The notes beneath the pieces are model-generated. The model was given only the letters and a program-made list of their open reading frames with translations. It did not search any database and was not told where the DNA came from. A stretch of DNA of 64,000 bases from a virus, in the IMG/VR virus record IMGVR_UViG_3300043427_003273, positions 36,902-100,901 of that record. The stretch is one strand, 5' to 3'. Both the position numbers and the translations under genes were made by a program. Shown piece after piece: positions 51,892 through 64,000 of the stretch. Position 1 is the stretch's first letter; each line of letters starts with the position of its first letter.

Positions 51892-52043
51892 TAGTCAATT
51901 GCCTCCAATTCAAGAAATTCTGGATCAAACTCTCCTTCATTATAAAACTTTTCTGCCAGTTCGTCAAGGACTTCTGTAGATTGTTCATAAGAAAGGTCTT
52001 TGTGAATAATTCGACCCTTATACAGAATATTAAACTTTCCCAT
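51891..52043 (-). CDS. Small acidic protein (50 aa)
   Basis: Not in ORF track. MGKFNILYKGRIIHKDLSYEQSTEVLDELAESFYNEGEFDPEFLELEAID*. Confidence 0.75.
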   Translation of the reverse strand: MGKFNILYKGRIIHKDLSYEQSTEVLDELAEKFYNEGEFDPEFLELEAID

Positions 52044-52049
52044 AAGATA

Positions 52050-52931
52050 TCAGATTACTCGGGTCTTTTCGTGTCCAACACGGATACGAGGATCACACCA
52101 GATCTCAAATCCTGCTTCTTTTGCATCGAGACAGAACGAAACGTCTTCTCCGCACATATCTTGTACTGCACCAGACTCAAAGACTTGCATCTTAGGTGCA
52201 AACCAAGGATACTTCATCTCCTCATGCTCAAATACACCATTCTTAATCATGACCCAACCAAATCCAGTGTAATCAACTGTAAATGGTTTCTTACGTTTGC
52301 TGATGCCATCAACCATCTCATGATTCATTACACCACCGTTATTACGGAAGTCATCTTCATCCAACCAGTGAGCAACAGAGGTGGTACGACCATCTTCTGT
52401 GCAATACCATCCAGCAGCAATGGGATGATCTTTTTCTGGATTTGCTTTGAGACTACGAGAAATTACATTTCCATTCTGATCAACTTTCTCTTCAAATGTA
52501 GCTCCTTGATTTCCTTCTTCATCTTCAGTATAAATTACTGCATCTTCGGGGAATGCAAGATCACAGAGTTGCCAGAATTTTTCCGTATTGAATACGATGT
52601 CACTGTCAATCCAGAGTTGGTAATCATAAGGAAGTCGTCCATCCCAGGGAATCTGATCAGGTCCTCGGAGAACATTTGCACCTAAACACTTGCAACGTGC
52701 AAAATTAACCATTGATGAGTAATCTTGAGAAATCTGAATACTCATCTGATTTTGTACAAGATCGAAACAGAGTTGTACAAAAGATTTGAGAAATTGGAAC
52801 GAGCACCCTCTGCCAGGCAAGCAGAAAACAATCGTCTTACCTCTCATGCGCTCTTTGATTTTTGCGTAGTCCCATTCCTCACCCTTTTCAACCTTAGGTG
52901 GGTTTGCTTTTACTGTGAATCCTTTTGCCAT
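52050..52931 (-). CDS. GT-A-fold glycosyltransferase-like protein
   Basis: WIDSDIVF (DxD), TGFGWVMI, GEDVSFC and VGHEK motifs. Confidence 0.75.
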   Translation of the reverse strand: MAKGFTVKANPPKVEKGEEWDYAKIKERMRGKTIVFCLPGRGCSFQFLKSFVQLCFDLVQNQMSIQISQDYSSMVNFARCKCLGANVLRGPDQIPWDGRLPYDYQLWIDSDIVFNTEKFWQLCDLAFPEDAVIYTEDEEGNQGATFEEKVDQNGNVISRSLKANPEKDHPIAAGWYCTEDGRTTSVAHWLDEDDFRNNGGVMNHEMVDGISKRKKPFTVDYTGFGWVMIKNGVFEHEEMKYPWFAPKMQVFESGAVQDMCGEDVSFCLDAKEAGFEIWCDPRIRVGHEKTRVI

Positions 52932-52984
52932 AATAGTATCAATGTTCAGTTAATATTTTAAAGTATTTTAATATAACAGTCAAG

Positions 52985-53203
52985 TCAATGAGAAGATTCT
53001 AATGTTATTTTCTTATTGACTACAAGTTCCTCATAAGATAAATCAGCAGTCTCATAATTACCTCCGAGAAGTTCTGTGAGGTAATTTAATGTATCCCAAT
53101 TTTTTTGAAATTCTTCTTCGGGCAAACTATGATAAACACACTTACCTTTTAAGTAGATATGATAAATCTTCGTTTCACTCATGAATCTTATTCGGTCTCT
53201 CAC
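52985..53203 (-). CDS. Conserved hypothetical protein
   Basis: KIYHIYLKGKCVYHSLPEEEF; late promoter box at 53209. Confidence 0.7.
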   Translation of the reverse strand: MRDRIRFMSETKIYHIYLKGKCVYHSLPEEEFQKNWDTLNYLTELLGGNYETADLSYEELVVNKKITLESSH

Positions 53204-53207
53204 TGGG

Positions 53208-53438
53208 TTATTTATGTGTATACCTTAGAAGCACTATCATAAGAAACATGAGGATACTTATGAGTTTTATCGAGGGTGGTCCGAAAATTATGAGTCCTAA
53301 TAAGACTGCAGAGATCCTTAGCATTTGTGCTGGATATCTTATTAACCATCCAACTAACACTGCTCGGTAGATATTCCAATAGGGGGTTTTGGGGGAATTT
53401 TTACCACGGGAAAATTTTTGATATCGACCGTAAACCAT
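53208..53438 (-). CDS. Small membrane protein
   Basis: TPYWNIYRAVLVGWLIRYP followed by hydrophobic segments; start uncertain. Confidence 0.6.
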   Translation of the reverse strand: MVYGRYQKFSRGKNSPKTPYWNIYRAVLVGWLIRYPAQMLRISAVLLGLIIFGPPSIKLISILMFLMIVLLRYTHK

Positions 53439-53545
53439 TTTGAAAATAATATAGAGATTGTTATATATCGACCGATTATCAAGATTTGTAGGTTAGAAGG
53501 ACCCATCAATTTTAGCTACGGGCGGGACCGACCGTAATCGGCACA

Positions 53546-53602
53546 CATAAGAACTGCTAATACATCACGAACGACCCATAAGGACTGCTGATGTATCACG
53601 AA
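53546..53602. repeat. 26-bp direct repeat (22/26 identical) at the early/late boundary
   Basis: CATAAGAACTGCTAATACATCACGAA (53546) and CATAAGGACTGCTGATGTATCACGAA (53577). Confidence 0.8.
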
Positions 53603-53631
53603 GGGGGCAATGTGTGCCCCCTAAGTATACC

Positions 53632-53904
53632 TTACTCTGCTGCCTGTTCGATAGCAACGAGGTTGCCATTTGCCCTTGCTTGTGCAATCAAACGACCGAG
53701 GGAGATACCCTTACAATCAGTGTAGGAGATGATCTCAATCAGATCAGCACAGAACTCAGGGTTGCTATTGAAACCGTATGCACGGTTTGTGTTGTTTTGG
53801 AAGATCACTTCGACATAACCTTCCTGCTCAATGTGCAGGTTCTGGATTGCACTCGATTCGGCAACGGTGAAGGTGCGGAAGACAGGTGCGGTTGCGGTGG
53901 TCAT
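53632..53904 (-). CDS. Early protein, KTSC-like
   Basis: ESSAIQNLHI...VEVIFQ...AYGF...SLGRLI resembles KTSC; start reassigned to ATG 53904, downstream of the TACAAT promoter. Confidence 0.6.
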   Translation of the reverse strand: MTTATAPVFRTFTVAESSAIQNLHIEQEGYVEVIFQNNTNRAYGFNSNPEFCADLIEIISYTDCKGISLGRLIAQARANGNLVAIEQAAE

Positions 53905-53974
53905 GGTGTGCGGTGCGTGTTTGCTTGTTAATTGTACCATGGGGAGGGGGGATCTGTGAATCCCCCCGAAGGGG

Positions 53975-54232
53975 TCAGGGCAGGGGGGATGCCATTGCCT
54001 TGAAGGTGCCCCATGCGGTTTTGATCTTGGTTCCGATCCGTTTGCCAGAGGTGCAACCAGAGGACCATCCGAAGTGGGGGTTCCACTGTTGCACGTTGCC
54101 GCACCACTGAACCCAGTTGGTGTTGCCTGCGGGGCACCAGGGGTCGTCAGAGTACAGACGAACGTAACCGCAGACCGAGGAGAGTTCTGCCATGCGGAGT
54201 TCGATGCGTTCTGCGTCGGAGAGGTGGATCAC
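53975..54232 (-). CDS. Early hypothetical protein
   Basis: GTG start after TGcTACACT -10 box (~54260). Confidence 0.6.
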   Translation of the reverse strand: MIHLSDAERIELRMAELSSVCGYVRLYSDDPWCPAGNTNWVQWCGNVQQWNPHFGWSSGCTSGKRIGTKIKTAWGTFKAMASPLP

Positions 54233-54298
54233 GGGGTTTCCCTTGCGGTTGACTCTGACAGTGTAGCACGGGGAGGGGGCATTGCTGCCCCCGTTGCC

Positions 54299-54577
54299 TC
54301 AGAACATGGTGGCAACGATGCGGTCCCGTTTGCGGATGGCATCGGTGCGGATGAACCACAGATCCCGTTTGCCCGTCTTCTCATTGCGGGTGGAACCCAG
54401 GATCTCCTGCCGTTCCATTTGGCAGAGCACTGCGTGGATCGTGCCCTTGTGCTCACGGGGGTTCAGACCCATGGCACGGGTGAGGTCGGAGAGGGTCTTA
54501 GGACCCTGCTGGATCAGGATGCCACGGGTGAAGACACGCACGGGCAGGGTCAGGACGGGGGTGAGGTCGAGGGTCAT
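54299..54577 (-). CDS. Early winged-HTH-like protein
   Basis: GPKTLSDLTRAMG...GTIHAVLCQMERQEIL...TGKRDLWFI pattern. Confidence 0.6.
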   Translation of the reverse strand: MTLDLTPVLTLPVRVFTRGILIQQGPKTLSDLTRAMGLNPREHKGTIHAVLCQMERQEILGSTRNEKTGKRDLWFIRTDAIRKRDRIVATMF

Positions 54578-54659
54578 GGGGTGTTCCCTTGGTTGACTTG
54601 TTCAGTATAAGGGGTGGAGAGGGGGCACTGCTGCCCCCCATGTGCAACTTAACGAACTG

Positions 54660-55385
54660 TCACACCCCCAGTGCTGCCCGCAGTTCTTTCTTGACTGTAC
54701 GGTTTGCCCGTGCATGTTTGCCCCAGTCAGACCCTGCAGGTTGCGTACCATGCACCAGGATGGCATAAGGACCAGGAGTGAAACAATGCCGTTCGTCTAC
54801 ATCAACAGGCAGACCCAGAGCATCAGCAACCTCCACAGATTCGACGACCTTAGCATAACGAGGGAAGTATCCTTCGTCGATCAGGTAGTCAAACTTGCCA
54901 CCATAAGATGCGGTGAGGTAGAAGTTCTCGGGCAGATCCAAACCCATAAAAAGGTTGAGGGATTTGCTGTAGCAGTAGAACTTAATCGTAGGATTTGCCA
55001 TTGCCACCATCACCCATGCTTGGAGATAGTGTGCATTGAAGAAGTCACCCGATTCATGAATGCGAACACGTTTGTGCTTCTTCTTCAGGTTCTTATGCAG
55101 TTCGGTGTTGATAAAGTCGGCAAGGTTGCCATTCTTCATAACATCCAGAACCTGGGCAAAGTTGTCTGCACGGTTGAAGAATACCTGATCGTATTGCACC
55201 TCAGAGGATGCAGCAAAGCAACGGAACTCGGTGTGAGGACCATCTGCGATCTTGCGACCCTCAGGTGTCACAACTGCAAACGATTTGCAGAACATCGCAC
55301 CAGGGCAGGTCTTTCCTGCGGGCAGGTTGAAGATCAGGGTGTTTTTGTTGATCTTTGCGTTGCCAGTGGAGAAGTGCAGTGCCAT
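54660..55385 (-). CDS. GP88-like protein (radical-SAM-related Cys motif)
   Basis: GNAKI...FNLPAGKTCPGAMFC...CFA...RVRIHESGDFF...FYCYSK; start reassigned to ATG 55385. Confidence 0.75.
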   Translation of the reverse strand: MALHFSTGNAKINKNTLIFNLPAGKTCPGAMFCKSFAVVTPEGRKIADGPHTEFRCFAASSEVQYDQVFFNRADNFAQVLDVMKNGNLADFINTELHKNLKKKHKRVRIHESGDFFNAHYLQAWVMVAMANPTIKFYCYSKSLNLFMGLDLPENFYLTASYGGKFDYLIDEGYFPRYAKVVESVEVADALGLPVDVDERHCFTPGPYAILVHGTQPAGSDWGKHARANRTVKKELRAALGV

Positions 55386-55457
55386 TGGTTCAGGTGGTGA
55401 ACTTCGATCAGTGTAGGGCATGGGTGGGGACCGTTGCCGATCCCCTTGTGCAGGTTG

Positions 55458-55619
55458 TCAGGGTGTCACAGTGGGGATGTCATCAACCCACACAATACCC
55501 CACAACTCATCCACTGTAACCTCCAGCATTGCTGCCAGACCCTCATCATCCATCACCGCAGGGGAGATGTCGATCAGGGGGTGCTCGTCGATCTGGATCA
55601 TCGTGCAGAACAGGTCCAT
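55458..55619 (-). CDS. Small acidic early protein (53 aa)
   Basis: Not in ORF track. MDLFCTMIQIDEHPLIDISPAVMDDEGLAAMLEV...; preceded by TAGGAT -10. Confidence 0.65.
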   Translation of the reverse strand: MDLFCTMIQIDEHPLIDISPAVMDDEGLAAMLEVTVDELWGIVWVDDIPTVTP

Positions 55620-55691
55620 GGGTCGTTTGCGGTTGACTGGTTCATCCTACAGCATGAGGGGCACCGTTGGGGGTGCCCAGTTCACAAACCT

Positions 55692-55943
55692 TCACATCAT
55701 GGAAATGACTTGCATGATGCTAGAAACCTGAACAGGAGTTTGCCAGGAAATTACATCCTCCAGCATGTTGTTGTTGGGTCTGATGATAGCAACCTCAAAG
55801 GTATCCTCACCGATGACACCATACAGACCAGAACCTTTCGGACCTGCAACTACACTTACTTTCCATTCATTCGGGAAAGTATGTTGGGCAATCGTGCCAC
55901 CTTTGATGACACCATGATCACGAAAGTTCAGAGTGGAGAACAT
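55692..55943 (-). CDS. Early hypothetical protein
   Basis: MFSTLNFRDH...FPNEWKVSVV...GLYG...TFEVAII; promoter TATAGT at 55968. Confidence 0.75.
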   Translation of the reverse strand: MFSTLNFRDHGVIKGGTIAQHTFPNEWKVSVVAGPKGSGLYGVIGEDTFEVAIIRPNNNMLEDVISWQTPVQVSSIMQVISMM

Positions 55944-56022
55944 TGTCCTGTCCGATTGACTGAAACAACTATAAGGGGTCGGGGGCACCGTTTGGCACCC
56001 CCAGTGGACACCTGGCAAGGTG

Positions 56023-56472
56023 TCACATCTTGCCTTCTTTCACCAAACGATCATAAAGTGCAGAGGCAATCTTACCACATTCGGGACATGCTTTCGCATA
56101 CTTAATGTCCGAACGAAGTGTGGCAACGTTGTTGTTAGTCTTGGGCAGATACTTCACCCGATAAACTGCAGAAACCAGTTTGAGTAGTTGACGTTTCTGC
56201 AGATCACCATGAATGCTCTTCCACTGATAAACAGGGGTGAAATACTGATAGTTGTTGCCTTCGGTGCGGCACTTCTGCAGTGCCTTGATGATGTTGGCAG
56301 AAGTCAGATCACCGAAGTAAGGTGTGAGTTCCTGGTGCATAAACACGTCGAACTCTTCTGCTTCCGTGAGAACTTTGATCTTGTCGGTAAGAGACTCCAT
56401 GGTGCGTTGAATCGCATCCATGTTGCTCTTCAGGTTGAGGACTTCGTTCTGGAGGATAGCAATGGTGGTCAT
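56023..56472 (-). CDS. Early protein with N-terminal coiled coil
   Basis: Start reassigned to MTTIAILQNE, downstream of the palindrome promoter. Confidence 0.7.
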   Translation of the reverse strand: MTTIAILQNEVLNLKSNMDAIQRTMESLTDKIKVLTEAEEFDVFMHQELTPYFGDLTSANIIKALQKCRTEGNNYQYFTPVYQWKSIHGDLQKRQLLKLVSAVYRVKYLPKTNNNVATLRSDIKYAKACPECGKIASALYDRLVKEGKM

Positions 56473-56590
56473 GATGTGTTGCGGAGGTGTGATGGGTGTG
56501 TGTCCCTCCGATGCACATAAGATCCCACAGATCCTGGGGCACCACAAGGGGGTTTGTGCCACCTGTCGAACTGTCCATTCTCATGTTGAC

Positions 56591-56616
56591 AAAAAAAAGA
56601 GGGGTGCTAACCCCTC
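56591..56616 (-). terminator. Rho-independent terminator
   Basis: GAGGGGTTAGCACCCCTCTTTTTTTT. Confidence 0.9.
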
Positions 56617-56622
56617 ATGAGA

Positions 56623-56811
56623 TCAAAACTCGATCTCCCAATCTTTGTCGTGGTGAATGTCAACCCAGAAATGGTTTTTACCATTTGCAGATGTAACAAA
56701 CACCTTATCACCTTTGTTCTGTTCGATGATAACTTCATCAACAGAATCCATCAGATTTGCGAATCGGTTTTTTGCCTTTTTGGATTTGGGAAAGACAAAT
56801 GCTGTTTCCAT
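56623..56811 (-). CDS. Conserved cyanophage early protein
   Basis: PKSKKAKNRFANLM...IEQ...FWVD...DKDW; last gene of its operon. Confidence 0.75.
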   Translation of the reverse strand: METAFVFPKSKKAKNRFANLMDSVDEVIIEQNKGDKVFVTSANGKNHFWVDIHHDKDWEIEF

Positions 56812-56954
56812 TAGAACTCAATCCAATCCGAAGTGGGTTCATTTGCAATCATAGCATCATCCTCCTCCCCCATGGCAATGGTGTCGAGGATCTTAAGAAT
56901 CTCTTCACCAGTGGAACCCTGACGAAGCATGGACAGCATGAGTTGTTTGGTCAT
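56811..56954 (-). CDS. Small early protein (47 aa)
   Basis: Not in ORF track. MTKQLMLSMLRQGSTGEEILKILDTI...; TAATG-coupled to the next ORF. Confidence 0.7.
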   Translation of the reverse strand: MTKQLMLSMLRQGSTGEEILKILDTIAMGEEDDAMIANEPTSDWIEF

Positions 56955-57002
56955 GATAAGAATGTGTGAACGTTTGTAGTTTAGGTGATAACTCGTCGAG
57001 AT

Positions 57003-57236
57003 TTAAGTGTCTTGTGACACTTGTTCTTGTGTCACATCCTCGACCAGTTCTTGCCAGTATTCCTCATCATAAATTGATGTGATGAGGTCTTCCATGTCAT
57101 GTTGATTAGCAGATTGAAAAGAATCTACCAGCATCTCATAGAGCATTTGTTCCATTGATTTCGTGTCCATTTCATCAACGACACGATCACAATATTTCTC
57201 GATGATTTCATCGAGTTGTTGAGGAGTGAGATTCAT
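57003..57236 (-). CDS. Acidic early protein
   Basis: ATGA-coupled; very D/E-rich. Confidence 0.75.
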   Translation of the reverse strand: MNLTPQQLDEIIEKYCDRVVDEMDTKSMEQMLYEMLVDSFQSANQHDMEDLITSIYDEEYWQELVEDVTQEQVSQDT

Positions 57237-57442
57237 TTGATTTCACAATAATCAATGGACTTGATGCACCAACCTGTTTCATTTGTGATCTCATCAACGA
57301 GATCCTCTTCATCCTCAATGTCCCAATCGCAATTCATAACATTGCGAATGATCTCTTCTTGAGGAACAGGATCACCTTCCCATCCTTCATCATAATCATC
57401 ACCGAAATCAAACTCAATGGCAGTAATCTTGAAAGTTTTCAT
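57233..57442 (-). CDS. Acidic early protein
   Basis: ITAIEFDF...DEEDLVDEITNETGWCIKSIDY. Confidence 0.75.
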   Translation of the reverse strand: MKTFKITAIEFDFGDDYDEGWEGDPVPQEEIIRNVMNCDWDIEDEEDLVDEITNETGWCIKSIDYCEIK

Positions 57443-57567
57443 TTTGCAGTAGAAGATGCGAAGGATTGAATACCATCAATGGCACGATTGCCCATGTTGG
57501 CTATACCATTGAAACCAACGGTTGAGAGAATAACTCCAACCACAAGACCAACGAAAAACTTACTCAT
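57439..57567 (-). CDS. Small membrane protein (42 aa)
   Basis: Not in ORF track. MSKFFVGLVVGVILSTVGFNGIA...; ATGA overlaps at both ends. Confidence 0.7.
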   Translation of the reverse strand: MSKFFVGLVVGVILSTVGFNGIANMGNRAIDGIQSFASSTAK

Positions 57568-57698
57568 TGAGGCACCTCTTGAATCACCTCTTCAATGGAA
57601 ATGATTTGTTTGTCTTCATTGATGTAATCAGTGCGAACAAGATTCGGTCCAACTTGTGTTTGACCGATGATGTAAGCAGCAGCAAGAAGTTCAATCAT
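57564..57698 (-). CDS. Small early protein (44 aa)
   Basis: Not in ORF track. MIELLAAAYIIGQTQVGPNLVRTDYINE... Confidence 0.65.
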   Translation of the reverse strand: MIELLAAAYIIGQTQVGPNLVRTDYINEDKQIISIEEVIQEVPQ

Positions 57699-57798
57699 CT
57701 TGTGTTTGGTAGTATTCAATGAGTGTATTCTCGTCGAGATTTTCTAACTCTTCGTCAGAAATCTGATTGAGAATTGAAAAGATGTCGTCAAAAGTCAT
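57691..57798 (-). CDS. Acidic micro-protein (35 aa)
   Basis: Not in ORF track. MTFDDIFSILNQISDEELENLDENTLIEYYQTQDD*. Confidence 0.55.
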   Translation of the reverse strand: MTFDDIFSILNQISDEELENLDENTLIEYYQTQDD

Positions 57799-57913
57799 TG
57801 TTCGACTCCAACGCAACACCAAATGCGTAGTCATCGTATTCAATGTCATCGAAATCTTCAGATTCGATGAGATCCAGAAGTGGATCAGTGTTCAGAAGAT
57901 CGTCGTGCTCCAT
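57788..57913 (-). CDS. Extremely acidic micro-protein (41 aa)
   Basis: Not in ORF track. MEHDDLLNTDPLLDLIESEDFDDIEYDDYAFGVALESNNDF*; first ORF after the palindrome promoter at 57970. Confidence 0.65.
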   Translation of the reverse strand: MEHDDLLNTDPLLDLIESEDFDDIEYDDYAFGVALESNNDF

Positions 57914-57992
57914 GTGTTTGTTTCGACTCTTGTATTATGTAGCAGGACACTGGGGAAATCCAGTGTCCTTGTGCCACTTGTGAGAGTGTCTA

Positions 57993-58373
57993 CTATTCGC
58001 AGAACACCTCACCCTTATGTGTTAACCACACTCTCTTTGCATTGTGTACATCACCATTGCGAGTTTGGAAGAAATCATTATGATAAGGATTGTAATTTAC
58101 CCTTACCATCTTCTCTTCACATCCCAATGTGTTTGCCATGAGTGTACCATACGCAAAGGCATGAACATACTTTTTGTTCTCTTTGCGGACACGATTCTGC
58201 CCTGCTTTGTTCACAACAAAGTGAACATCGTCGAGAACCACATAATCCCAACGCAACCACACTCTCCAACCCTTGGGAGTTTTGCGTTGAATGCTCCAGC
58301 AACCGTCCCGCAGGTTGCGGTAGACACGGACGGTCTCCTTGTGAAGAACGGGTTCGCCTTTGTGGTTTTTCAT
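57993..58373 (-). CDS. Conserved phage early protein
   Basis: VRVYRNL...WSI...FVVNKAGQNRVRKE.KKYVHAF...VNYNPY; start reassigned to ATG 58373. Confidence 0.8.
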   Translation of the reverse strand: MKNHKGEPVLHKETVRVYRNLRDGCWSIQRKTPKGWRVWLRWDYVVLDDVHFVVNKAGQNRVRKENKKYVHAFAYGTLMANTLGCEEKMVRVNYNPYHNDFFQTRNGDVHNAKRVWLTHKGEVFCE

Positions 58374-58451
58374 GAGGTGTCTCAGGAACAAACGTAGTAT
58401 GCCATGAATCAGGGGGGACCGCAATCCCCCCGTGTGCCAGTTGTCAGGGTG

Positions 58452-58616
58452 TCACAGGCACCCGTTGGCATCAAGAAAACCAGCACACCATCCATCCCCA
58501 TAATAGTAACCAATGTAATAGTTACCAAATGAGATACCAAATTGTTCTTCCATGTGATGGGTATTCTTCAGATCCCAACCAATGTAGAAGAATTTGGTGT
58601 TGAATGAGAATTTCAT
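58452..58616 (-). CDS. Small aromatic-rich early protein (54 aa)
   Basis: Start reassigned to ATG 58616; leader identical to that of the 58373 gene. Confidence 0.7.
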   Translation of the reverse strand: MKFSFNTKFFYIGWDLKNTHHMEEQFGISFGNYYIGYYYGDGWCAGFLDANGCL

Positions 58617-58686
58617 GAGGTGTCTCAGGAACAAACGTAGTATGGCAGGGATCTCATGAGAACACAAGACCCCTTGTGCCAGTCTC

Positions 58687-59124
58687 TCAACTGGACATCT
58701 TTACATACTGCTCGATGATGTTTGAGATCTCAGAAGGACCAATCTGTGTACCATCCTTCAGTATAAACGACTGATAAGGATCGACACCTTCCCGAGAATC
58801 AATTGTGGTAGAATTGATGGTCATGAACTTAGAAGTCATGGCATCTTGACGAATTTGATCACTTAACCAATCCCAAAGTTCAGTGTCATGATTATCCTCT
58901 TCGGTGTCACAGTTAATGAGAATCTCATTCCCATTCTGCCACACGTACTTTTCAAACTCAGTGATCACATCATCATACTCCATGTCTGCCAACCAGGAGA
59001 TACTCTCACTGAGATCATCCACATGATTACCAATGAAATCTACAAGAGATTTAAAATACTCTTCCAGGTTAAAATCATCAGCAACCTGACACTTGGAAGT
59101 GCAAACAAATTGAGTGTAGGACAT
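58687..59124 (-). CDS. Acidic early protein (145 aa)
   Basis: Own palindrome promoter; stop codon inside the next palindrome. Confidence 0.75.
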   Translation of the reverse strand: MSYTQFVCTSKCQVADDFNLEEYFKSLVDFIGNHVDDLSESISWLADMEYDDVITEFEKYVWQNGNEILINCDTEEDNHDTELWDWLSDQIRQDAMTSKFMTINSTTIDSREGVDPYQSFILKDGTQIGPSEISNIIEQYVKMSS

Positions 59125-59196
59125 GAGAGTTCTGTGGGGAACAAATGTAATGTAACAGGGATCTTATGAGAACACAAGACCCCTTGTGCCACTTGA

Positions 59197-59421
59197 TCAG
59201 GTGTCTGCTGAGATGAAAGTTTCAAAGAACAAATCCCATGCGGGACTATCAGCAACAAAGGAATGAATTCCTACCTGATCACATACCCATTCGTATGCCA
59301 TATCGCAATCTGCGTTAGTATCTAACACAAATGATTGCAATCCAGAAATTACATCAAGAAACACTGAATCTTCAATCAAAGATTGACGAAACTTCTTGGT
59401 GTGCTGATCTTGGATGATCAT
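59197..59421 (-). CDS. Early hypothetical protein
   Basis: DCDMAYEWVCDQ; own palindrome promoter. Confidence 0.75.
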   Translation of the reverse strand: MIIQDQHTKKFRQSLIEDSVFLDVISGLQSFVLDTNADCDMAYEWVCDQVGIHSFVADSPAWDLFFETFISADT

Positions 59422-59454
59422 GAGATTTGTGTGAACTGTGAATATCTTATGGGA

Positions 59455-59592
59455 TCAAATCCAGAACTGTTGGGACACTTGTGCAGGTTTTGAATCTGGC
59501 ACACCAGTCCTTGACCCATACCATCCCATGATGCTAAAGGCAATTCCCATAAGAACTGCAAAACTTACAAGTTCTGATGATTTAATATTCAC
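59455..59592 (-). CDS. Small membrane protein (45 aa, GTG start)
   Basis: Not in ORF track. (M)NIKSSELVSFAVLMGIAFSIMGWYG...; GTGA-coupled to the upstream ORF. Confidence 0.5.
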   Translation of the reverse strand: MNIKSSELVSFAVLMGIAFSIMGWYGSRTGVPDSKPAQVSQQFWI

Positions 59593-59729
59593 AGAAACTC
59601 CATCATGTAGTAATCAACAGTTACTTCCTGTTCTGCTGCTAATTCTTCCAATGCCATATCAAAGGCATTGTCAATCTCATTCTTTTGATCCTCATGATCA
59701 CAGAAGAGATCTAATGTTGATTCATTCAT
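59589..59729 (-). CDS. Acidic micro-protein (46 aa)
   Basis: MNESTLDLF...EVTVDYYMMEFL; downstream of TTGACA-18-TATACT (59800-59829). Confidence 0.7.
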   Translation of the reverse strand: MNESTLDLFCDHEDQKNEIDNAFDMALEELAAEQEVTVDYYMMEFL

Positions 59730-59799
59730 GGTGGTGAGTGTTTTAGAGGTCTCTGAGATCTTATAAGAGTTAATAACCCTTATCAACCTCGACAAGGCA

Positions 59800-59829
59800 A
59801 GTATAGCATCAATCAGCATACCCTGTCAA
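59800..59829 (-). promoter_or_regulatory. Sigma70-type early promoter
   Basis: TTGACA-18 bp-TGcTATACT. Confidence 0.8.
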
Positions 59830-59955
59830 GCCCCCTCGGTGTGTTGGACGAAACCAACATAAGACCCTTATGGGGGATCTGATGCCAACCCTGTGCCACT
59901 TGCAGAAGTGTCCACAATGCGGGTTTTGCGGGGTGTTCAATGCTTATAATACGGA

Positions 59956-60067
59956 GACAATCAAATGAGAGGTGGGGTAACCTTGTTGATTAAATGTTCG
60001 ACACTGAACCTGCAATAAAATAATTATCATAAGATACTAAAAAGGATCCCTGATATCAGGAATCCTT
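59956..60067 (+). ncRNA. Candidate ~110-nt RNA or 17-aa peptide mRNA
   Basis: TATAAT at 59945, 29 bp from palindrome 59892; ends at hairpin 60039-60067; only ORF is 59965-60018. Confidence 0.4.
60039..60067 (-). terminator. Terminator hairpin, possibly bidirectional
   Basis: AAGGATTCCTGATATCAGGGATCCTTTTT on the minus strand. Confidence 0.75.
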
Positions 60068-60102
60068 ATGTGTGTATTCTCGTCGAGATTTTTATGATAT
60101 AT

Positions 60103-60273
60103 TCACCACCTATCAGGGCATGAGAGATCTTCCACATAACTGGAAACTTTCTCATTTGCTTGAAGATCCAGAACTTTATTCCAATCAATTTGATGTGGAT
60201 CAAAGTCATCGAGTGCTTCAATTTCCAATGTGACTCTATACTTTTGTTTTTGCATTGCACGATAGACAGACAT
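60103..60273 (-). CDS. Conserved cyanophage small protein (56 aa)
   Basis: MSVY...KYRVTLEIEALDDFDPHQIDWNKVLDLQ; promoter TTGACA-17-TAAACT at 60302-60330. Confidence 0.75.
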   Translation of the reverse strand: MSVYRAMQKQKYRVTLEIEALDDFDPHQIDWNKVLDLQANEKVSSYVEDLSCPDRW

Positions 60274-60393
60274 AAGAACCTCGGGGAATTGGAACATATT
60301 CAGTTTATCATGATGTGGGTGGGGTGTCAACTGTTCTTATGTATATCTCGTCGAGATTATTTGAGATCTTATGTGAGCATAAGATAACATAAG

Positions 60394-60455
60394 AAAAAAG
60401 ATGATCTCGATGGTATTTGTTGAGCATCATCGAGATTCACCTTGGTTAACCCACC
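60394..60455 (-). ncRNA. Candidate ~60-nt small RNA
   Basis: TTGACA-17-TATGAT (60462-60490), then ATCTCGATG/CATCGAGAT stem and a U6 tract; no ORF. Confidence 0.5.
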
Positions 60456-60609
60456 GAAGACATCATAAGACATCTATGGGAATCTGTCAACCCCTGTTCT
60501 TATGAGATGTGTGAGAATCTCGACATGCCTGGGTGATTAGGAGATCTTATGTGATAAGGAGTTCTTATGTGAAAAAATGTCTCGGGGTCCAGAAAAAAAA
60601 TCGTCCCCC

Positions 60610-60638
60610 TTGACAAAAAAACCATCGTGTGTTATAAT
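60610..60638 (+). promoter_or_regulatory. Perfect-consensus sigma70 promoter with extended -10
   Basis: TTGACA-17 bp-TATAAT with TGn. Confidence 0.9.
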
Positions 60639-60658
60639 AGGCGGTCTAAGATCACAAG

Positions 60659-60777
60659 ATCCCGACGCATTTATAATGATATAATGTGAATCTCGACGCA
60701 TTTATAAGATATAAAAGAACACATAAGAACACATATGATATGATGTGAATCTAGTAGAGATATGATGTGAATCTAGT
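60659..60777. repeat. AT-rich tandem repeat cluster
   Basis: CGACGCATTTATAA x2, AAGAACACATA x2, GATATGATGTGAATCTAGT x2 (60737 and 60759). Confidence 0.85.
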
Positions 60778-60833
60778 TGAGAACCTTTTATTTATACCAT
60801 AAAATTGTGAGCAAAACATAACACAAACCATAT

Positions 60834-60865
60834 TTTTCCACAAAGTTTTCCACAGGTTTTCCACA
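60834..60865 (+). promoter_or_regulatory. Three tandem DnaA-box-like 9-mers (TTTTCCACA)
   Basis: Copies at 60834, 60846 and 60857 (11-12 bp period); two more at 61017 and 61029 (one mismatch). Confidence 0.65.
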
Positions 60866-60938
60866 ATGACATACATCCTGATCCCATCTATGTGCATGTC
60901 ATACCATACATAATCTAGTACACTTGAGAACACTGACT

Positions 60939-61511
60939 ATGACTAAGAAATGGTTAAATGAACTCAAAGGAATGCAATGCTATGAAGGATACTATATTAC
61001 ACCAGAAGGTCTGATCTTTTCCACAAAGTATTCCACAGATAGACAACTTAAATTTAATGATGTGAAAGAGTATAAGACCATACGATTGAGCAATGGTAAG
61101 GGTGAGAATCGTACCTTCTATGTTCATCGTCTTATTGCATTATCCTTTCTTCCGAATCCATCATGTGCAGTGAAGATCAGACATAAGAACGGAAACACAC
61201 ATGATAATCATGTGACTAACTTAGAATGGATTGTGAAGAAAAAGATCATTCGTAAGTATGATCCTATTAAGAGTAGAGAACGATATGAGAAGAATAAAAG
61301 CAAGAAAGAATATTTGGATCCATCTTGTCTAATTGTGAATAAGGACATGAGTGATAGAATACGTTTGATTCATTATGCCACAATACAAAAAGGACTCTCA
61401 ACACCTGTAGAAGATTATGACTTCTTCTATAAGATCTTACATGAGAGTTTGAATGAATATATTAACCGTTATGGTTTGAGACGTATTATGTTTCAACTTG
61501 GGAATAATTGA
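60939..61511 (+). CDS. HNH homing endonuclease (NUMOD4/I-HmuI-like)
   Basis: YYITPEGLIFS; VHRLIALSFLPNP...RHKNGNTHDNHVTNLEW; the only credible plus-strand gene. Confidence 0.85.
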   Translation: MTKKWLNELKGMQCYEGYYITPEGLIFSTKYSTDRQLKFNDVKEYKTIRLSNGKGENRTFYVHRLIALSFLPNPSCAVKIRHKNGNTHDNHVTNLEWIVKKKIIRKYDPIKSRERYEKNKSKKEYLDPSCLIVNKDMSDRIRLIHYATIQKGLSTPVEDYDFFYKILHESLNEYINRYGLRRIMFQLGNN

Positions 61512-61894
61512 GAAATGACGATTTCACCTTTGAAATGATTTTGTAGTTTTTTGATTTTTTCCTTGAATTTGTTTGGTGGGCAGGTTTGTCGTCCTAGGTT
61601 CATCAGACGTAACGTAATCACGACATTTCCAGGAATATATCCTTTCGACTCATCTAATCGGTCTAATGATGGTGCAAATGGATTTTGAGATTCATACACA
61701 CCATAAGGATCAATAGGATAATCAGACCAATAACATTTACCATCTTGACTCTTATATTGTTGTGCAATATATTGTTCGGTGATTGTCACATCCAATGGTT
61801 CAGTTCTTTTGATTCCATTCTTTTTCTCTTGCCCTGGTTTTGCGGCGGACTTTGCTTTGGCAAGAAGTGTTTTCCATGGATTACGTTGTTTCAT
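61493..61894 (-). CDS. His-Me-finger/HNH-like endonuclease
   Basis: QDGKCYWS...PSLDRLDESKGYIPGNVV...MN. Confidence 0.7.
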   Translation of the reverse strand: MKQRNPWKTLLAKAKSAAKPGQEKKNGIKRTEPLDVTITEQYIAQQYKSQDGKCYWSDYPIDPYGVYESQNPFAPSLDRLDESKGYIPGNVVITLRLMNLGRQTCPPNKFKEKIKKLQNHFKGEIVISQLFPS

Positions 61895-62054
61895 GTCGTT
61901 TTTTACATACAGATCGTGCCCAGGCAGAAGCGAATGATTGAATCACAGAGCATGATTTCCCCACTTTACCACAATAGGGGCATGGTGTTGAATCAATGAT
62001 CTTTGGTTTTCTCTTTTTTGCGTTTTCTGCTTGTTTTCGTTTGTGGTGATTCAT
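61881..62054 (-). CDS. Small basic Cys-containing protein
   Basis: MNHHKRKQ...CPYC...C...C; ATGA-coupled. Confidence 0.6.
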   Translation of the reverse strand: MNHHKRKQAENAKKRKPKIIDSTPCPYCGKVGKSCSVIQSFASAWARSVCKKRHETT

Positions 62055-62359
62055 TCTTTGTTCAGGAACCACCAACCCAGACCAATCAGAATGGCAATCG
62101 GGAGAATAATATACCAATATGCCACAACTGCACCGATGGCAAATAGAATACCGATAATTGCCCATCCACCACTGCCCAGTTCGATGCCACCACCACCTCC
62201 GCCACCAGAACCACGGACTTCTCGCAAATTGATGATTTGCTCTGCACCGTAGATGTTTTTCAGTTGCTCATGTGCTCCATTGATCGTGTTGGCAGATACT
62301 TCGATGTCTTGATAACCCGAAGCACTACCCAACCAGCATTTCGCAGTCCATCGTGCCAT
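62051..62359 (-). CDS. Early membrane-anchored protein with poly-Gly linker
   Basis: AGGAG SD; MARWTAKCW...GSGGGGGGGIE followed by two hydrophobic segments. Confidence 0.75.
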   Translation of the reverse strand: MARWTAKCWLGSASGYQDIEVSANTINGAHEQLKNIYGAEQIINLREVRGSGGGGGGGIELGSGGWAIIGILFAIGAVVAYWYIILPIAILIGLGWWFLNKE

Positions 62360-62385
62360 AATGAGATTTCTCCTTGTGATGTGTG

Positions 62386-62422
62386 TATGATAGCATGAAA
62401 AAGGGGGATTTGACAATCCCCC
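62386..62422 (-). terminator. Terminator hairpin overlapping the next promoter
   Basis: GGGGGATTGTCAAATCCCCCTTTTT contains TTGTCA (-35); TGcTATCAT follows. Confidence 0.75.
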
Positions 62423-62429
62423 GTGTGAT

Positions 62430-62915
62430 TCACTTCATGTAAAGATAAGAACCTGCCCAATCAGCACGACGGTAACATTCCTCACGGGATTGCTTGTCCA
62501 TGAGATTGTAACGCACATGCTTGGCAGGCGATTTCCATGTTGCAGGTTTATACACTTCACCAGTGAATTTGTTCACAAAAGCATGAATGCTCTTTTGCTT
62601 CACACTGCCATCATGATTGACATTAGTTTCCGTTTCAATGCGAAGATACTTGCGACCTTCGACAATGTAGAAACTCATGCCATAATCATAAGTGCCATTG
62701 CGAATCTGCTCCAGGCACTTCTCATGATAACCCACATAAGACCCATCCACAATACCATTGTTGGCAATGGCATGTTGATGAGATTTCGTGGTGTAAAGAC
62801 GGAAGTTCTCATCCAGGGCATTGACCAGGGATTCAGTGTAACGAAGAACATCGTTCACTTGTGCTTCCACCACTGGACGGGTGGCAACGAAGTCAGAGAA
62901 GGTGCTGGTGGTCAT
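62430..62915 (-). CDS. Conserved cyanophage early protein
   Basis: GRKYLRI...SIHAFVNKFTGEVYKPATWKSPAKHVRYNL...ADWAGSYLY. Confidence 0.85.
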   Translation of the reverse strand: MTTSTFSDFVATRPVVEAQVNDVLRYTESLVNALDENFRLYTTKSHQHAIANNGIVDGSYVGYHEKCLEQIRNGTYDYGMSFYIVEGRKYLRIETETNVNHDGSVKQKSIHAFVNKFTGEVYKPATWKSPAKHVRYNLMDKQSREECYRRADWAGSYLYMK

Positions 62916-62999
62916 GGAAGGGGTGCCTCCTTGTGTATGAATGTATTGTAGGGCATCCTGGGTGCCAGTCGATGCCCTGTGTGCCAGTTTGCAAACCGT

Positions 63000-63170
63000 C
63001 TACTCTACGTTGCAGTCGGGATGCCAGTGTGCTTGTTGCTGACAATACCTTTCCTTGGGTGAATACCCATTTGCCTTGAACAGTGCATCATCACGTTGAA
63101 TCAGAAATGCGTTCCATCCAACAATCGCAGCAAAAGCAGCAATTCCAAAACCAATGTACTTAAGTTTCAT
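63000..63170 (-). CDS. Small membrane-anchored protein (56 aa)
   Basis: Not in ORF track. MKLKYIGFGIAAFAAIVGWNAFLIQRD...WHPDCNVE*. Confidence 0.7.
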   Translation of the reverse strand: MKLKYIGFGIAAFAAIVGWNAFLIQRDDALFKANGYSPKERYCQQQAHWHPDCNVE

Positions 63171-63177
63171 TTGTCAA

Positions 63178-63648
63178 TCACCAGGATGCACGATATTCAA
63201 ACTCCCAAGATTCGGGAGCATTCTTCAGAATCTTTTGAAGCATAAGAATCGTATTCTCCAAATCATCATAATAATACTGATCAAGTTCAGTGCCACCGAA
63301 GAAGAAACCAGATTGAGGAGGCAACAGTTCTCCTGCTCGACTCCTATCTTTCAACACAGTTTCACACCTCCACAGAAGCTCTACAAGAGCATCTTGAGAC
63401 ACATAGATGTCTTGACATTCATCTTTACCATTACCACACCTATCCACAAAATACTTGTGAATTTGATTTGCTTTCCTCCAATATGCAATTTGCAGTTTCA
63501 CTTCAGCAAATTGCAGATCATCAGAATCCAGGAACTTGGTTCCTTTCATCAGACGAGCAATGGATTTCACTTTCTTGCAATCATCTTCCTTGCTCCAAGA
63601 AGACGAAGAAACGAATTGCTTCGCATAGAGATACATGTCAAGTCCCAT
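63178..63648 (-). CDS. Conserved phage protein (MGLDMYL...YWRKANQIH...GFFFG...YRASW family)
   Basis: Start reassigned to ATG 63648 after AGGAG. Confidence 0.85.
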   Translation of the reverse strand: MGLDMYLYAKQFVSSSSWSKEDDCKKVKSIARLMKGTKFLDSDDLQFAEVKLQIAYWRKANQIHKYFVDRCGNGKDECQDIYVSQDALVELLWRCETVLKDRSRAGELLPPQSGFFFGGTELDQYYYDDLENTILMLQKILKNAPESWEFEYRASW

Positions 63649-63673
63649 GATAATGCTCCTGTGTGTAAGTGAA

Positions 63674-63835
63674 TCAGTTTTCAGGATAGAGTTTCCAACC
63701 ATCAGGTTGAATACCCATTTCTTCACAACGCACTTCATAAACAATGCGTTTCAGAAGACGCAGGGGCATTTCCTGCTCGATTGTTTTCTGAATGATGCGA
63801 CGGAGTTGTGCGTCTGTGGTAGTGTCAGTGACCAT
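63674..63835 (-). CDS. Small early protein (53 aa)
   Basis: Not in ORF track. MVTDTTTDAQLRRIIQKTIEQEMPL...; follows palindrome promoter 63897. Confidence 0.7.
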   Translation of the reverse strand: MVTDTTTDAQLRRIIQKTIEQEMPLRLLKRIVYEVRCEEMGIQPDGWKLYPEN

Positions 63836-63907
63836 TGGAGTGTCCGTTGATTACCTTGTTAGTATAAGGGCACCCTGCGTGGTGCTGGATGCCCTGTGTG
63901 CCAGTTC

Positions 63908-64000
63908 TTATGCTGTCACATAGTTGGGAATGTCAACACGTTCTGCGATGCCAAACATACCAGTTTTGTATGCTTTCCAGTTGTCATTCAGATCGAACAG
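63908..64000 (-). CDS. Partial early ORF (3' end only)
   Basis: ...DLNDNWKAYKTGMFGIAERVDIPNYVTA*; stop lies inside palindrome 63897. Confidence 0.55.
   Translation of the reverse strand: MFDLNDNWKAYKTGMFGIAERVDIPNYVTA

Follow-up and report, generated by a model that had tools for sequence, protein, structure and literature searches.

Why would a T4-like virus of cyanobacteria place a very strong promoter, pointing against the general direction of its genes, in front of DNA that carries a cluster of sites matching those bound by DnaA, the replication initiator of its host? This question is raised by a locus in a 64,000-nt stretch of DNA (hereafter, the window, to which all coordinates refer unless stated otherwise) that represents bases 36902–100901 of a 100.9-kb IMG/VR virus contig (IMGVR_UViG_3300043427_003273; completeness rating, 52%) and belongs to a T4-like cyanomyovirus, as indicated by the presence of the T4-type baseplate genes gp6 and gp25 and of giant structural genes. 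Judged by sequence comparison, the element in question represents, in this phage, a non-coding, single-copy control module that many T4-like cyanophages (Kyanoviridae) have in common, and it makes a good, if unproven, candidate for the start site of viral DNA replication. The original observation was confirmed, and its interpretation was supported in part. Our preferred reading, which we regard as quite possible, if short of probable, is that of an early-transcribed, origin-like module whose boxes would bind host DnaA. The core of the module in the window comprises the following features:

60610–60638, plus strand: rightward promoter P_R (TTGACA at 60610–60615, a 17-nt spacer and TATAAT at 60633–60638; 12 of 12 consensus positions).
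60648–60658, plus strand: conserved first transcribed bases AAGATCACAAG, as placed by the predicted start site.
60659–60833, plus strand: private repeat region, 70% AT, with CGACGCATTTATAA twice, a 10-nt unit repeated 2.1 times and a 22-nt unit repeated 2.1 times.
60834–60842, 60846–60854 and 60857–60865, plus strand: three perfect DnaA boxes TTTTCCACA separated by gaps of 3 and 2 nt.
61017–61025, plus strand: a fourth TTTTCCACA box, located inside a gene for an HNH homing endonuclease.

The starts of the three arrayed boxes (60834, 60846 and 60857) are 12 and 11 nt apart, in keeping with the original prediction of three boxes about one helical turn from each other. The raw number of TTTTCCACA sites, the count of which had been proposed as a check, is unremarkable (4 observed in the window vs. 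1.64 expected, with 6 of 100 shuffles reaching 4, and none on the minus strand of the 64 kb), but their clustering is beyond chance: upon random placement of four sites in 2,000,000 runs, three starts fell within 24 nt in only 2 runs and all four within 184 nt in none. Over the whole contig, four of the six TTTTCCACA boxes fall in the module. The exact 32-nt array was found in no IMG/VR contig, and its compact layout, CCACAGGTTTTCCACA, is common to the window, one metagenomic locus (L240; L-numbers are our locus handles) and the cultured phages S-BM3 and S-SCSM1.

The identification of TTTTCCACA as the cyanobacterial DnaA-box consensus is borne out by passages of two published papers, in which this 9-mer is the DnaA box of the cyanobacterial oriC and its in vitro binding by cyanobacterial DnaA is reported for Cyanothece (PMC4674748, PMC2275245). 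It also fits TTWTNCACA, the general DnaA consensus. When bacterial genomes were scanned for TTTTCCACA pairs 10–14 nt apart, at least 121 stretches were returned, 80 of which were fetched; these 80 loci span many phyla, so that a cyanobacteria-specific nature of such pairs was rejected, and a 12-nt gap (21 nt start to start) occurs in 49 of their 98 pairs. Taken together, the breadth of phyla and the recurrent 12-nt gap characterize TTTTCCACA as a general high-affinity DnaA box, used by cyanobacteria but not private to them.

The promoter P_R is, as originally predicted, a perfect sigma70 promoter; its −10 hexamer is preceded by TG, and transcription is predicted to start about 7 nt past this hexamer, at AAGATCAC. 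No other site within 59800–62000 matches 12 of 12 positions, and the entire 100.9-kb contig has just one more; AAGATCACAAG is present once in the contig, and the orientation of P_R opposes the general gene direction. (The other perfect TTGACA-16-18-TATAAT promoter is on the plus strand at about contig base 36640, some 262 nt ahead of the window start.) The label "T4-style," originally attached to P_R, had to be abandoned. Cyanomyoviruses, as described in part of one publication, use sigma70-like early promoters and are devoid of motA and asiA, and we therefore classify P_R as a promoter of the sigma70 early type rather than as a MotA-dependent T4 middle promoter (PMC2984593).

The DNA between the predicted start and the boxes had been described as ORF-free, AT-rich tandem repeats acting as an unwinding element, a description that survived in part. 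Repeats are present, but they are short and two-copy only: the CGACGCATTTATAA units start at 60663 and 60694, the 10-nt unit occupies 60715–60735, and the 22-nt unit spans 60737–60782, with a 77% copy at 60678–60699. The AT-richness is only moderate (60646–60833, 70%; whole window, 65%; last 12 kb of the window, 56%), and in terms of duplex instability, no 50-mer of the leader exceeds 60700–60749, which is at the window's 95th percentile. No plus-strand ORF of at least 30 aa exists between the start site and 60924, so that the region is indeed ORF-free on the transcribed strand up to the HNH gene, but not on the minus strand; none of the small ORFs over the region (54 and 60 aa on the minus strand, 35 aa on the plus strand) has a PHROG match. 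Likewise, the notion of a promoter firing into ORF-free DNA holds for the leader, but P_R also reads into the HNH gene.

The physical arrangement is genuine. Near-identical DNA is found, among the matches listed, in 20 public DNA runs of 12 freshwater studies and in no RNA run, and the promoter, boxes and HNH gene are bridged by contigs from four freshwater runs of four studies, one of which may be the window's own sample. The promoter-box-HNH arrangement is thus not an assembly artefact. The contigs of the public runs contain no joined form devoid of the HNH gene, although contigs cannot show absence, and the four joints listed in them are all within 59156–59957.

How widespread is this arrangement? 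Loci first reached through a conserved 57-aa gene (L008, L009, L010 and L015) share with the window the promoter and first transcribed bases (about 80% identity over 60606–60673), followed in each of them by tandem repeats of quite different sequence. The pattern CTTGACA-N26-36-AAGATCACAAG was found in at least 119 IMG/VR stretches, 80 of which were fetched, and the distance between its two parts is exactly 30 nt in 54 of the 80. With 11 loci set aside by eye as chance matches, 70 family loci remain, the window included. The 57-aa gene is present upstream on the opposite strand in 63 of these 70 family loci vs. none of the 11 chance-like loci, in independent agreement with the by-eye sorting; of the seven family loci lacking it, four have less than 100 nt of upstream DNA. 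Of 66 family loci, 57 have an opposed promoter (at least 10 of 12 positions, within 250 nt), for which the distance to the rightward −35 is usually 72–74 nt and, in the window, 118 nt. The core of a typical member matched 14 phage records, representing 10 cultured cyanomyoviruses, in all of which the matched stretch is unannotated. Megablast and blastn searches of the window region against the phage collection returned no match, which we attribute to an element that evolves too fast.

In typical members (S-SM2, L163, L196, L207, L170 and L211), the promoter is followed by one to four repeat units of the form ATCACAAG-N10-CATTTAnA, the sequences of which differ between relatives, and then by a box, 12 nt, a second box, a weak inverted box, an AT-rich block with an A-tract/T-tract palindrome, and a GC hairpin with a T-run suited to the converging genes. 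The A5-8/T5-8 palindrome lies downstream in 23 of the 56 members with enough sequence and upstream in none. The window and L240 have the compact array directly followed by the HNH gene, and both the A-tract/T-tract block and the terminator hairpin of typical members are absent from the window copy. The module, which is single-copy in the contig, occupies a transcription boundary, adjoining the terminator of converging genes. Many IMG/VR contigs end no more than about 200 nt past the promoter (e.g., L167, L175, L186, L187, L198, L199, L202, L214, L215, L217, L222, L231, L235 and L239), probably because assemblies break at repeats or strain-variable sequence.

Box counts were obtained for 81 loci (chance matches included) collapsed into 75 clusters at 95% identity. 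Within 300 nt downstream of the promoter, the promoter strand carries 35 TTTTCCACA sites (in 20 of 75 loci) and the opposite strand 8 (in 6 of 75); the 300 nt upstream contain none on the promoter strand and 2 on the other, and the remaining 251 kb of flanks contain 2 and 1, respectively. Box conservation, which had been set as a refuting check, thus turned out in favor of the original prediction, with boxes recurring in 20 of 75 loci behind the same promoter. Successive boxes are 20–22 nt apart in nine cases, 41–42 nt in three and 11–12 nt in three, so that the commonest spacing in the family is also that of the bacterial TTTTCCACA pairs. Variant sites (TTATCCACA and TTATACACA) are permitted DnaA-box variants under TTWTNCACA, and the last box is often followed by a weak inverted site. 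A large share of the boxes of a given record falls in the module (S-SM2, 2 of 3; L179 contig, 4 of 4; L240 contig, 4 of 6), and boxes are present in four of the eight cultured phages examined (S-SM2, S-BM3, S-8S53 and S-SCSM1). On these counts, the box array is a conserved but optional part of the module, found in about one quarter to one third of its members. Among individual arrays, a perfect 10-nt inverted repeat (GTTTCAACAT / ATGTTGAAAC) surrounds the second box of L163 (2537–2640 of that locus), and S-BM3 (L434) has a five-site compact array with weak TTTTCAACA and ATTCCACA sites, one TTATCCACA and an inverted TTTTCCACA.

What could such a module do? In the course of events that we propose, host RNA polymerase would fire from P_R upon DNA entry into the cell, and host DnaA would occupy the three boxes, which, at a distance of 11–12 nt, share one helical face and might accommodate a short oligomer of DnaA. 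In E. coli oriC, DnaA oligomers follow arrays with 2 bp between sites, and the R1 box points toward the unwinding element, as the boxes of typical members point toward the A/T block; no DnaA-trio pattern was seen beside the boxes of the module upon inspection by eye only. Transcription and DnaA would jointly open nearby easily melted DNA, and the first round of phage replication would start there, either from an R-loop primer, as at T4 oriF and oriG, or by primosome loading, with recombination-dependent replication taking over afterwards. In the window copy, the P_R transcript would also express the endonuclease. Since many relatives are devoid of boxes, we propose that these constitute an accessory that would tune the module or couple it to the replication state of the host. 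A broader generalization, that T4-like cyanophages start their first replication round at one defined transcription-activated origin, with DnaA recruited in many lineages via an oriC-style array, appears doubtful, but it is worth stating.

The layout of promoter plus gene-free downstream DNA does resemble T4 oriF (uvsY) and oriG, which are described, in part of the literature on T4 replication, as a promoter with a downstream unwinding element and R-loop priming (PMC3016281, Kreuzer and Brister 2010). In both cases, a T4-like phage has a strong promoter directed into gene-free DNA, which may be easily melted in the module, too, near a transcription change, and initiation could in principle do without a phage initiator protein. 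The originally suggested likeness to T4 origins is weakened by the sigma70 consensus of P_R, as opposed to the MotA-dependent middle promoters of T4, and by a weak unwinding element, the window copy being devoid of the unwinding block of its relatives. Furthermore, the T4 origins, as portrayed in the same source, have no common sequence motif and no DnaA boxes, in contrast to the module, and their activity is proven, whereas the module is a candidate. Direct repeats beside promoters, similarly arranged in relatives, are also known in T4 as iterons, the role of which is itself not settled according to the reviewed portion of this literature; the repeats of the module are lineage-private and 10–36 nt long, with no identified counterpart of RepEA or RepEB.

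Similarity to bacterial oriC box clusters, in particular to the cyanobacterial oriC (located next to dnaN), as far as the published descriptions cover it, includes the same 9-mer TTTTCCACA, the same permitted variants, the two-turn spacing prevalent in bacterial genomes and, in typical members, boxes of one orientation leading toward an AT-rich block. The module differs by having only one to four boxes, with no dnaN or dnaA nearby, downstream of a strong promoter, and by being dispensable, as far as its boxes are concerned, in many relatives. Another parallel is phage lambda, for which Szalewska-Palasz and Wegrzyn reportedly described DnaA boxes downstream of pR, together with the activation of ori-lambda by transcription: host DnaA sites would again be found downstream of a strong early phage promoter, but lambda encodes the initiator O, with iterons within the O gene, whereas the phage here has a complete T4-type replisome and is not known to carry an initiator gene. 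Direct repeats, DnaA boxes and AT-rich DNA occur side by side in P1 oriR and RK2 oriV, and the same three components are adjacent in the module, which, unlike iteron plasmids and phage-plasmids, resides in a lytic T4-like genome. An iteron-type theta origin was rejected, as the repeats differ between close relatives and no linked Rep gene was found (no Rep family among the 16 neighboring ORFs scanned).

Several observations weigh against an origin that employs DnaA. Compact TTTTCCACA pairs also occur in unrelated viral contigs, and the notion that such pairs mostly come from the module was rejected, with a 57-aa gene near only 8 of 80 loci and none nearby in the other 72. Boxes are missing from 55 of 75 loci and from the modules of four of the eight cultured phages (Bellamy, SynMITS9220M01, S-SCSM2R and Sf-FS3), Bellamy having no TTTTCCACA in its whole record; the core function of the module thus cannot require them. 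Even the closest relatives of the window copy are without TTTTCCACA, the L009/L236 contig having no site and L008 one relaxed site, TTATACACA. The window copy has no A/T-tract block, and its moderately unstable repeats are upstream, not downstream, of the boxes. An obvious ordinary job is available to P_R here, the expression of the HNH gene. Finally, in the proposed GC-skew check, three complete relatives (S-SM2, Bellamy and SynMITS9220M01) showed no inflection at the module: the cumulative skew rises steadily through it, and the detrended extremes are at distances of 11, 18 and more than 60 kb, respectively; as skew follows one-strand gene orientation in these genomes, this result says little either way.

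The alternative that fares best, though we consider it unlikely, is transcription control only. According to it, P_R would drive an early leader or antisense transcript (here, the HNH mRNA), and DnaA on the boxes would serve as an orientation-dependent roadblock or regulator, making the module a promoter-and-insulator unit and no origin. Such a role would be consistent with boxes that are always downstream of the promoter and strand-biased (35 forward vs. 8 reverse), with a P_R that faces converging genes and a hairpin terminating well only in the opposite direction, with the promoter-conforming orientation of all six inserted endonuclease genes, and with the absent GC-skew signal. DnaA bound to a dnaA box is said to block RNA polymerase in an orientation-dependent manner (Schaefer and Messer, 1988–89). 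However, most members have neither a gene nor a structured RNA behind the promoter, and a very strong promoter that yields no useful transcript and yet is kept across genera calls for another reason. Transcription control also leaves the downstream A/T-tract block (23 of 56 members) without a role.

Could the sites have nothing to do with DnaA? They might be sites for a phage protein, the recognition sequence of a homing endonuclease, or repeats generated by slippage or gene conversion, their match to the consensus being incidental. The insertion of two endonuclease families right behind the array, the 21-of-22-nt box copy within the HNH gene, the fast turnover of repeats and the frequent breakage of metagenome contigs in this region all fit this explanation. 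It is nevertheless rather improbable, given that the 9-mer is the exact host consensus, that its variants are permitted DnaA-box variants, that the commonest spacing equals that of bacterial box pairs, and that many members have boxes without any endonuclease gene.

A similarly low probability is assigned to a small non-coding RNA, which would measure about 190 nt in S-SM2 and correspond to the 5' leader of the HNH mRNA in the window; its repeated UUUUCCACA and AUCACAAG...CAUUUA motifs would be recognized by an RNA-binding protein of host or phage, or base-pair with a target RNA. The strong conserved promoter, the invariant first-transcribed sequence, the confinement of motifs to the transcribed strand, the presence of a hairpin about 190 nt downstream in S-SM2, L196 and L207, and a region that is unannotated or has only tiny ORF calls in cultured phages would all suit an RNA. 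Against it, an alignment of 60 leader sequences yielded no consensus structure (0 predicted pairs) and no covariation, the 293-nt leader of the window folds no better than its shuffles (z 0.10), and a search of Rfam gave no match at gathering score. In addition, the T-run of the hairpin is on the other strand, which points to termination of the converging genes, not of a leader RNA, and the box variants track the DNA consensus TTWTNCACA, with weak inverted partners (e.g., TTTTCAACA) that are not compensatory. Overall, the conservation of linear motifs, combined with box variants that follow a DNA consensus, favors a DNA-level role, although an unstructured RNA may still be involved.

The last alternative, a datA-like sponge in which boxes on replicating phage genomes would soak up host DnaA and thereby stop host replication rounds, is very unlikely: perfect, apparently high-affinity boxes in tight clusters, and their presence in some relatives only, as is frequent with accessory functions for host takeover, would speak for it, but there are just one to four boxes per genome, titration needs no fixed place, strand or spacing behind one promoter beside an A/T block, and T4-like phages stop host replication by other means.

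Should the broader generalization hold, T4-type phages would have their first known example of a DnaA-assisted origin, and phage replication would be tied to the replication state of the host, which may be light-dependent; homing endonucleases would then home into a replication origin. Any use of DnaA would mean that a T4-type replisome borrows a host initiator. Few viruses of aquatic primary producers are as abundant as T4-like cyanophages, and a gene-free single-copy module with host-initiator sites provides a concrete candidate, for which natural box-plus/box-minus pairs of cultured phages are at hand. Within the part of the review that covers replication origins, the sole record for a cyanophage is a skew-based prediction of a single theta origin in Syn9 (PMC2984593), and in literature other than subscription papers we found nothing on this module or on phage DnaA boxes in cyanophages. 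There is also a consequence for annotation, as GenBank records leave the region unannotated or with tiny doubtful ORF calls; in S-SM2 (NC_015279.1, 57841–58355), the tiny ORFs SSM2_085 to SSM2_087, which overlap the module and terminator region, are probably not genes.

The features flanking the core of the module in the window are as follows:

60103–60276 including the stop codon, minus strand: conserved 57-aa gene, phrog_12516 (PHROG E-value 5e-23).
60490 to 60462, minus strand: leftward promoter P_L, TTGACA-17-TATGAT (11 of 12 positions).
60533–60572, plus strand: tandem repeat of an 18-nt unit, AGGAGnTCTTATGTGA-like, 2.2 copies, just upstream of P_R.
60939–61511, plus strand: HNH homing-endonuclease gene, 190 aa, phrog_959 (E-value 4e-22), co-oriented with P_R.
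61017–61038, plus strand: box copy inside the HNH gene, identical to 60834–60855 at 21 of 22 nt.
61493–61894, minus strand: second nuclease gene, 133 aa, phrog_3322 "endonuclease."

The HNH protein of the window scores slightly below the Pfam HNH_3 cut-off (24.6 vs. 24.8 bits); its homologues at the same site score 26–45 bits, and it is 34–47% identical to the HNH genes located there in L240, L236 and L221. A search of IMG/VR by peptide patterns found no close relative of this protein, with a single match at 27% identity. Among the 70 family loci, HNH_3 genes are found behind the promoter in four (window, L221, L236 and L240) and GIY-YIG genes in two (L179 and L181), and most loci have no gene there. 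Within the other 69 loci, seven co-oriented ORFs of at least 100 aa start within 700 nt (3 HNH_3, 2 GIY-YIG and 2 without a match). All six endonuclease genes behind the promoter run in its orientation, as would be expected if the promoter is active. Two endonuclease families have thus, by these comparisons, homed repeatedly into the same site, always promoter-oriented. Further GIY-YIG-like starts after compact arrays were noticed, by reading only, in L069 and L097. The sporadic presence of HNH and GIY-YIG genes at one conserved intergenic site, co-oriented with a promoter, is reminiscent of the free-standing endonucleases (seg, mob) of T4-like phages, a likeness that concerns the HNH gene and not the module itself. 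Nuclease genes, according to a portion of one publication, sit at boundaries of genetic exchange (PMC10055350).

The recurrence of the box dyad inside the HNH gene (61017), pointed out in the original prediction, was confirmed, with an expected number of such 21-of-22-nt pairs of just 4e-5 in a 1.7-kb region. This internal copy contains one perfect box and one ATTCCACAG half-box, and encodes FSTKYST, of which S28, K30 and Y31 are invariant in an alignment of four proteins; its 20-mer TTCCACAAAGTATTCCACAG is also present in the gene-free array of L166. The simplest account would be a short gene-conversion patch between array and gene.

The neighboring genes, the HNH gene excepted, are all on the minus strand. 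The phrog_3322 nuclease gene converges on the HNH gene, their 3' ends overlapping by 19 nt, and homologues detected by tblastn in Syn1, S-RIM44, S-RIM12 and S-RIM32 occupy different genome places, so that this nuclease, too, looks mobile. The acidic 57-aa protein heads a leftward small-ORF block that extends toward gp25 and gp6, in the same order as in S-SM2. P_L, a sigma70-type promoter placed back to back with P_R, faces this gene and the block behind it.

Upstream of P_R, contigs from three of four public runs start or break at 60545–60572, and each of the tandem 18-nt units at 60536–60571 comprises a Shine-Dalgarno-like AGGAG, 6 nt and an ATG-TGA start-stop mini-ORF. The same intergenic region is crowded with short motifs: four of the seven copies of ATCTCG in the window are at 60345–60690, six of the 18 copies of CTTATG are at 60065–60564, and (G)ATCTCGA/ATCTAGT motifs crowd the corresponding region of L008, L009 and L010. 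The ATCTCG-type motif may be a binding motif for some protein. An enrichment of GATC (Dam) sites was considered and rejected, the five sites in 60331–60730 corresponding to the 90th percentile of 400-nt windows. On a larger scale (52000–64000 of the window), the small-ORF block is richer in GC (41–54%) than the structural genes (about 30%); it has families named after mycobacteriophage proteins (Phage_L5_gp82 at 57996–58424 and GP88 at 54663–55421) and may represent a foreign island or a hypervariable region.

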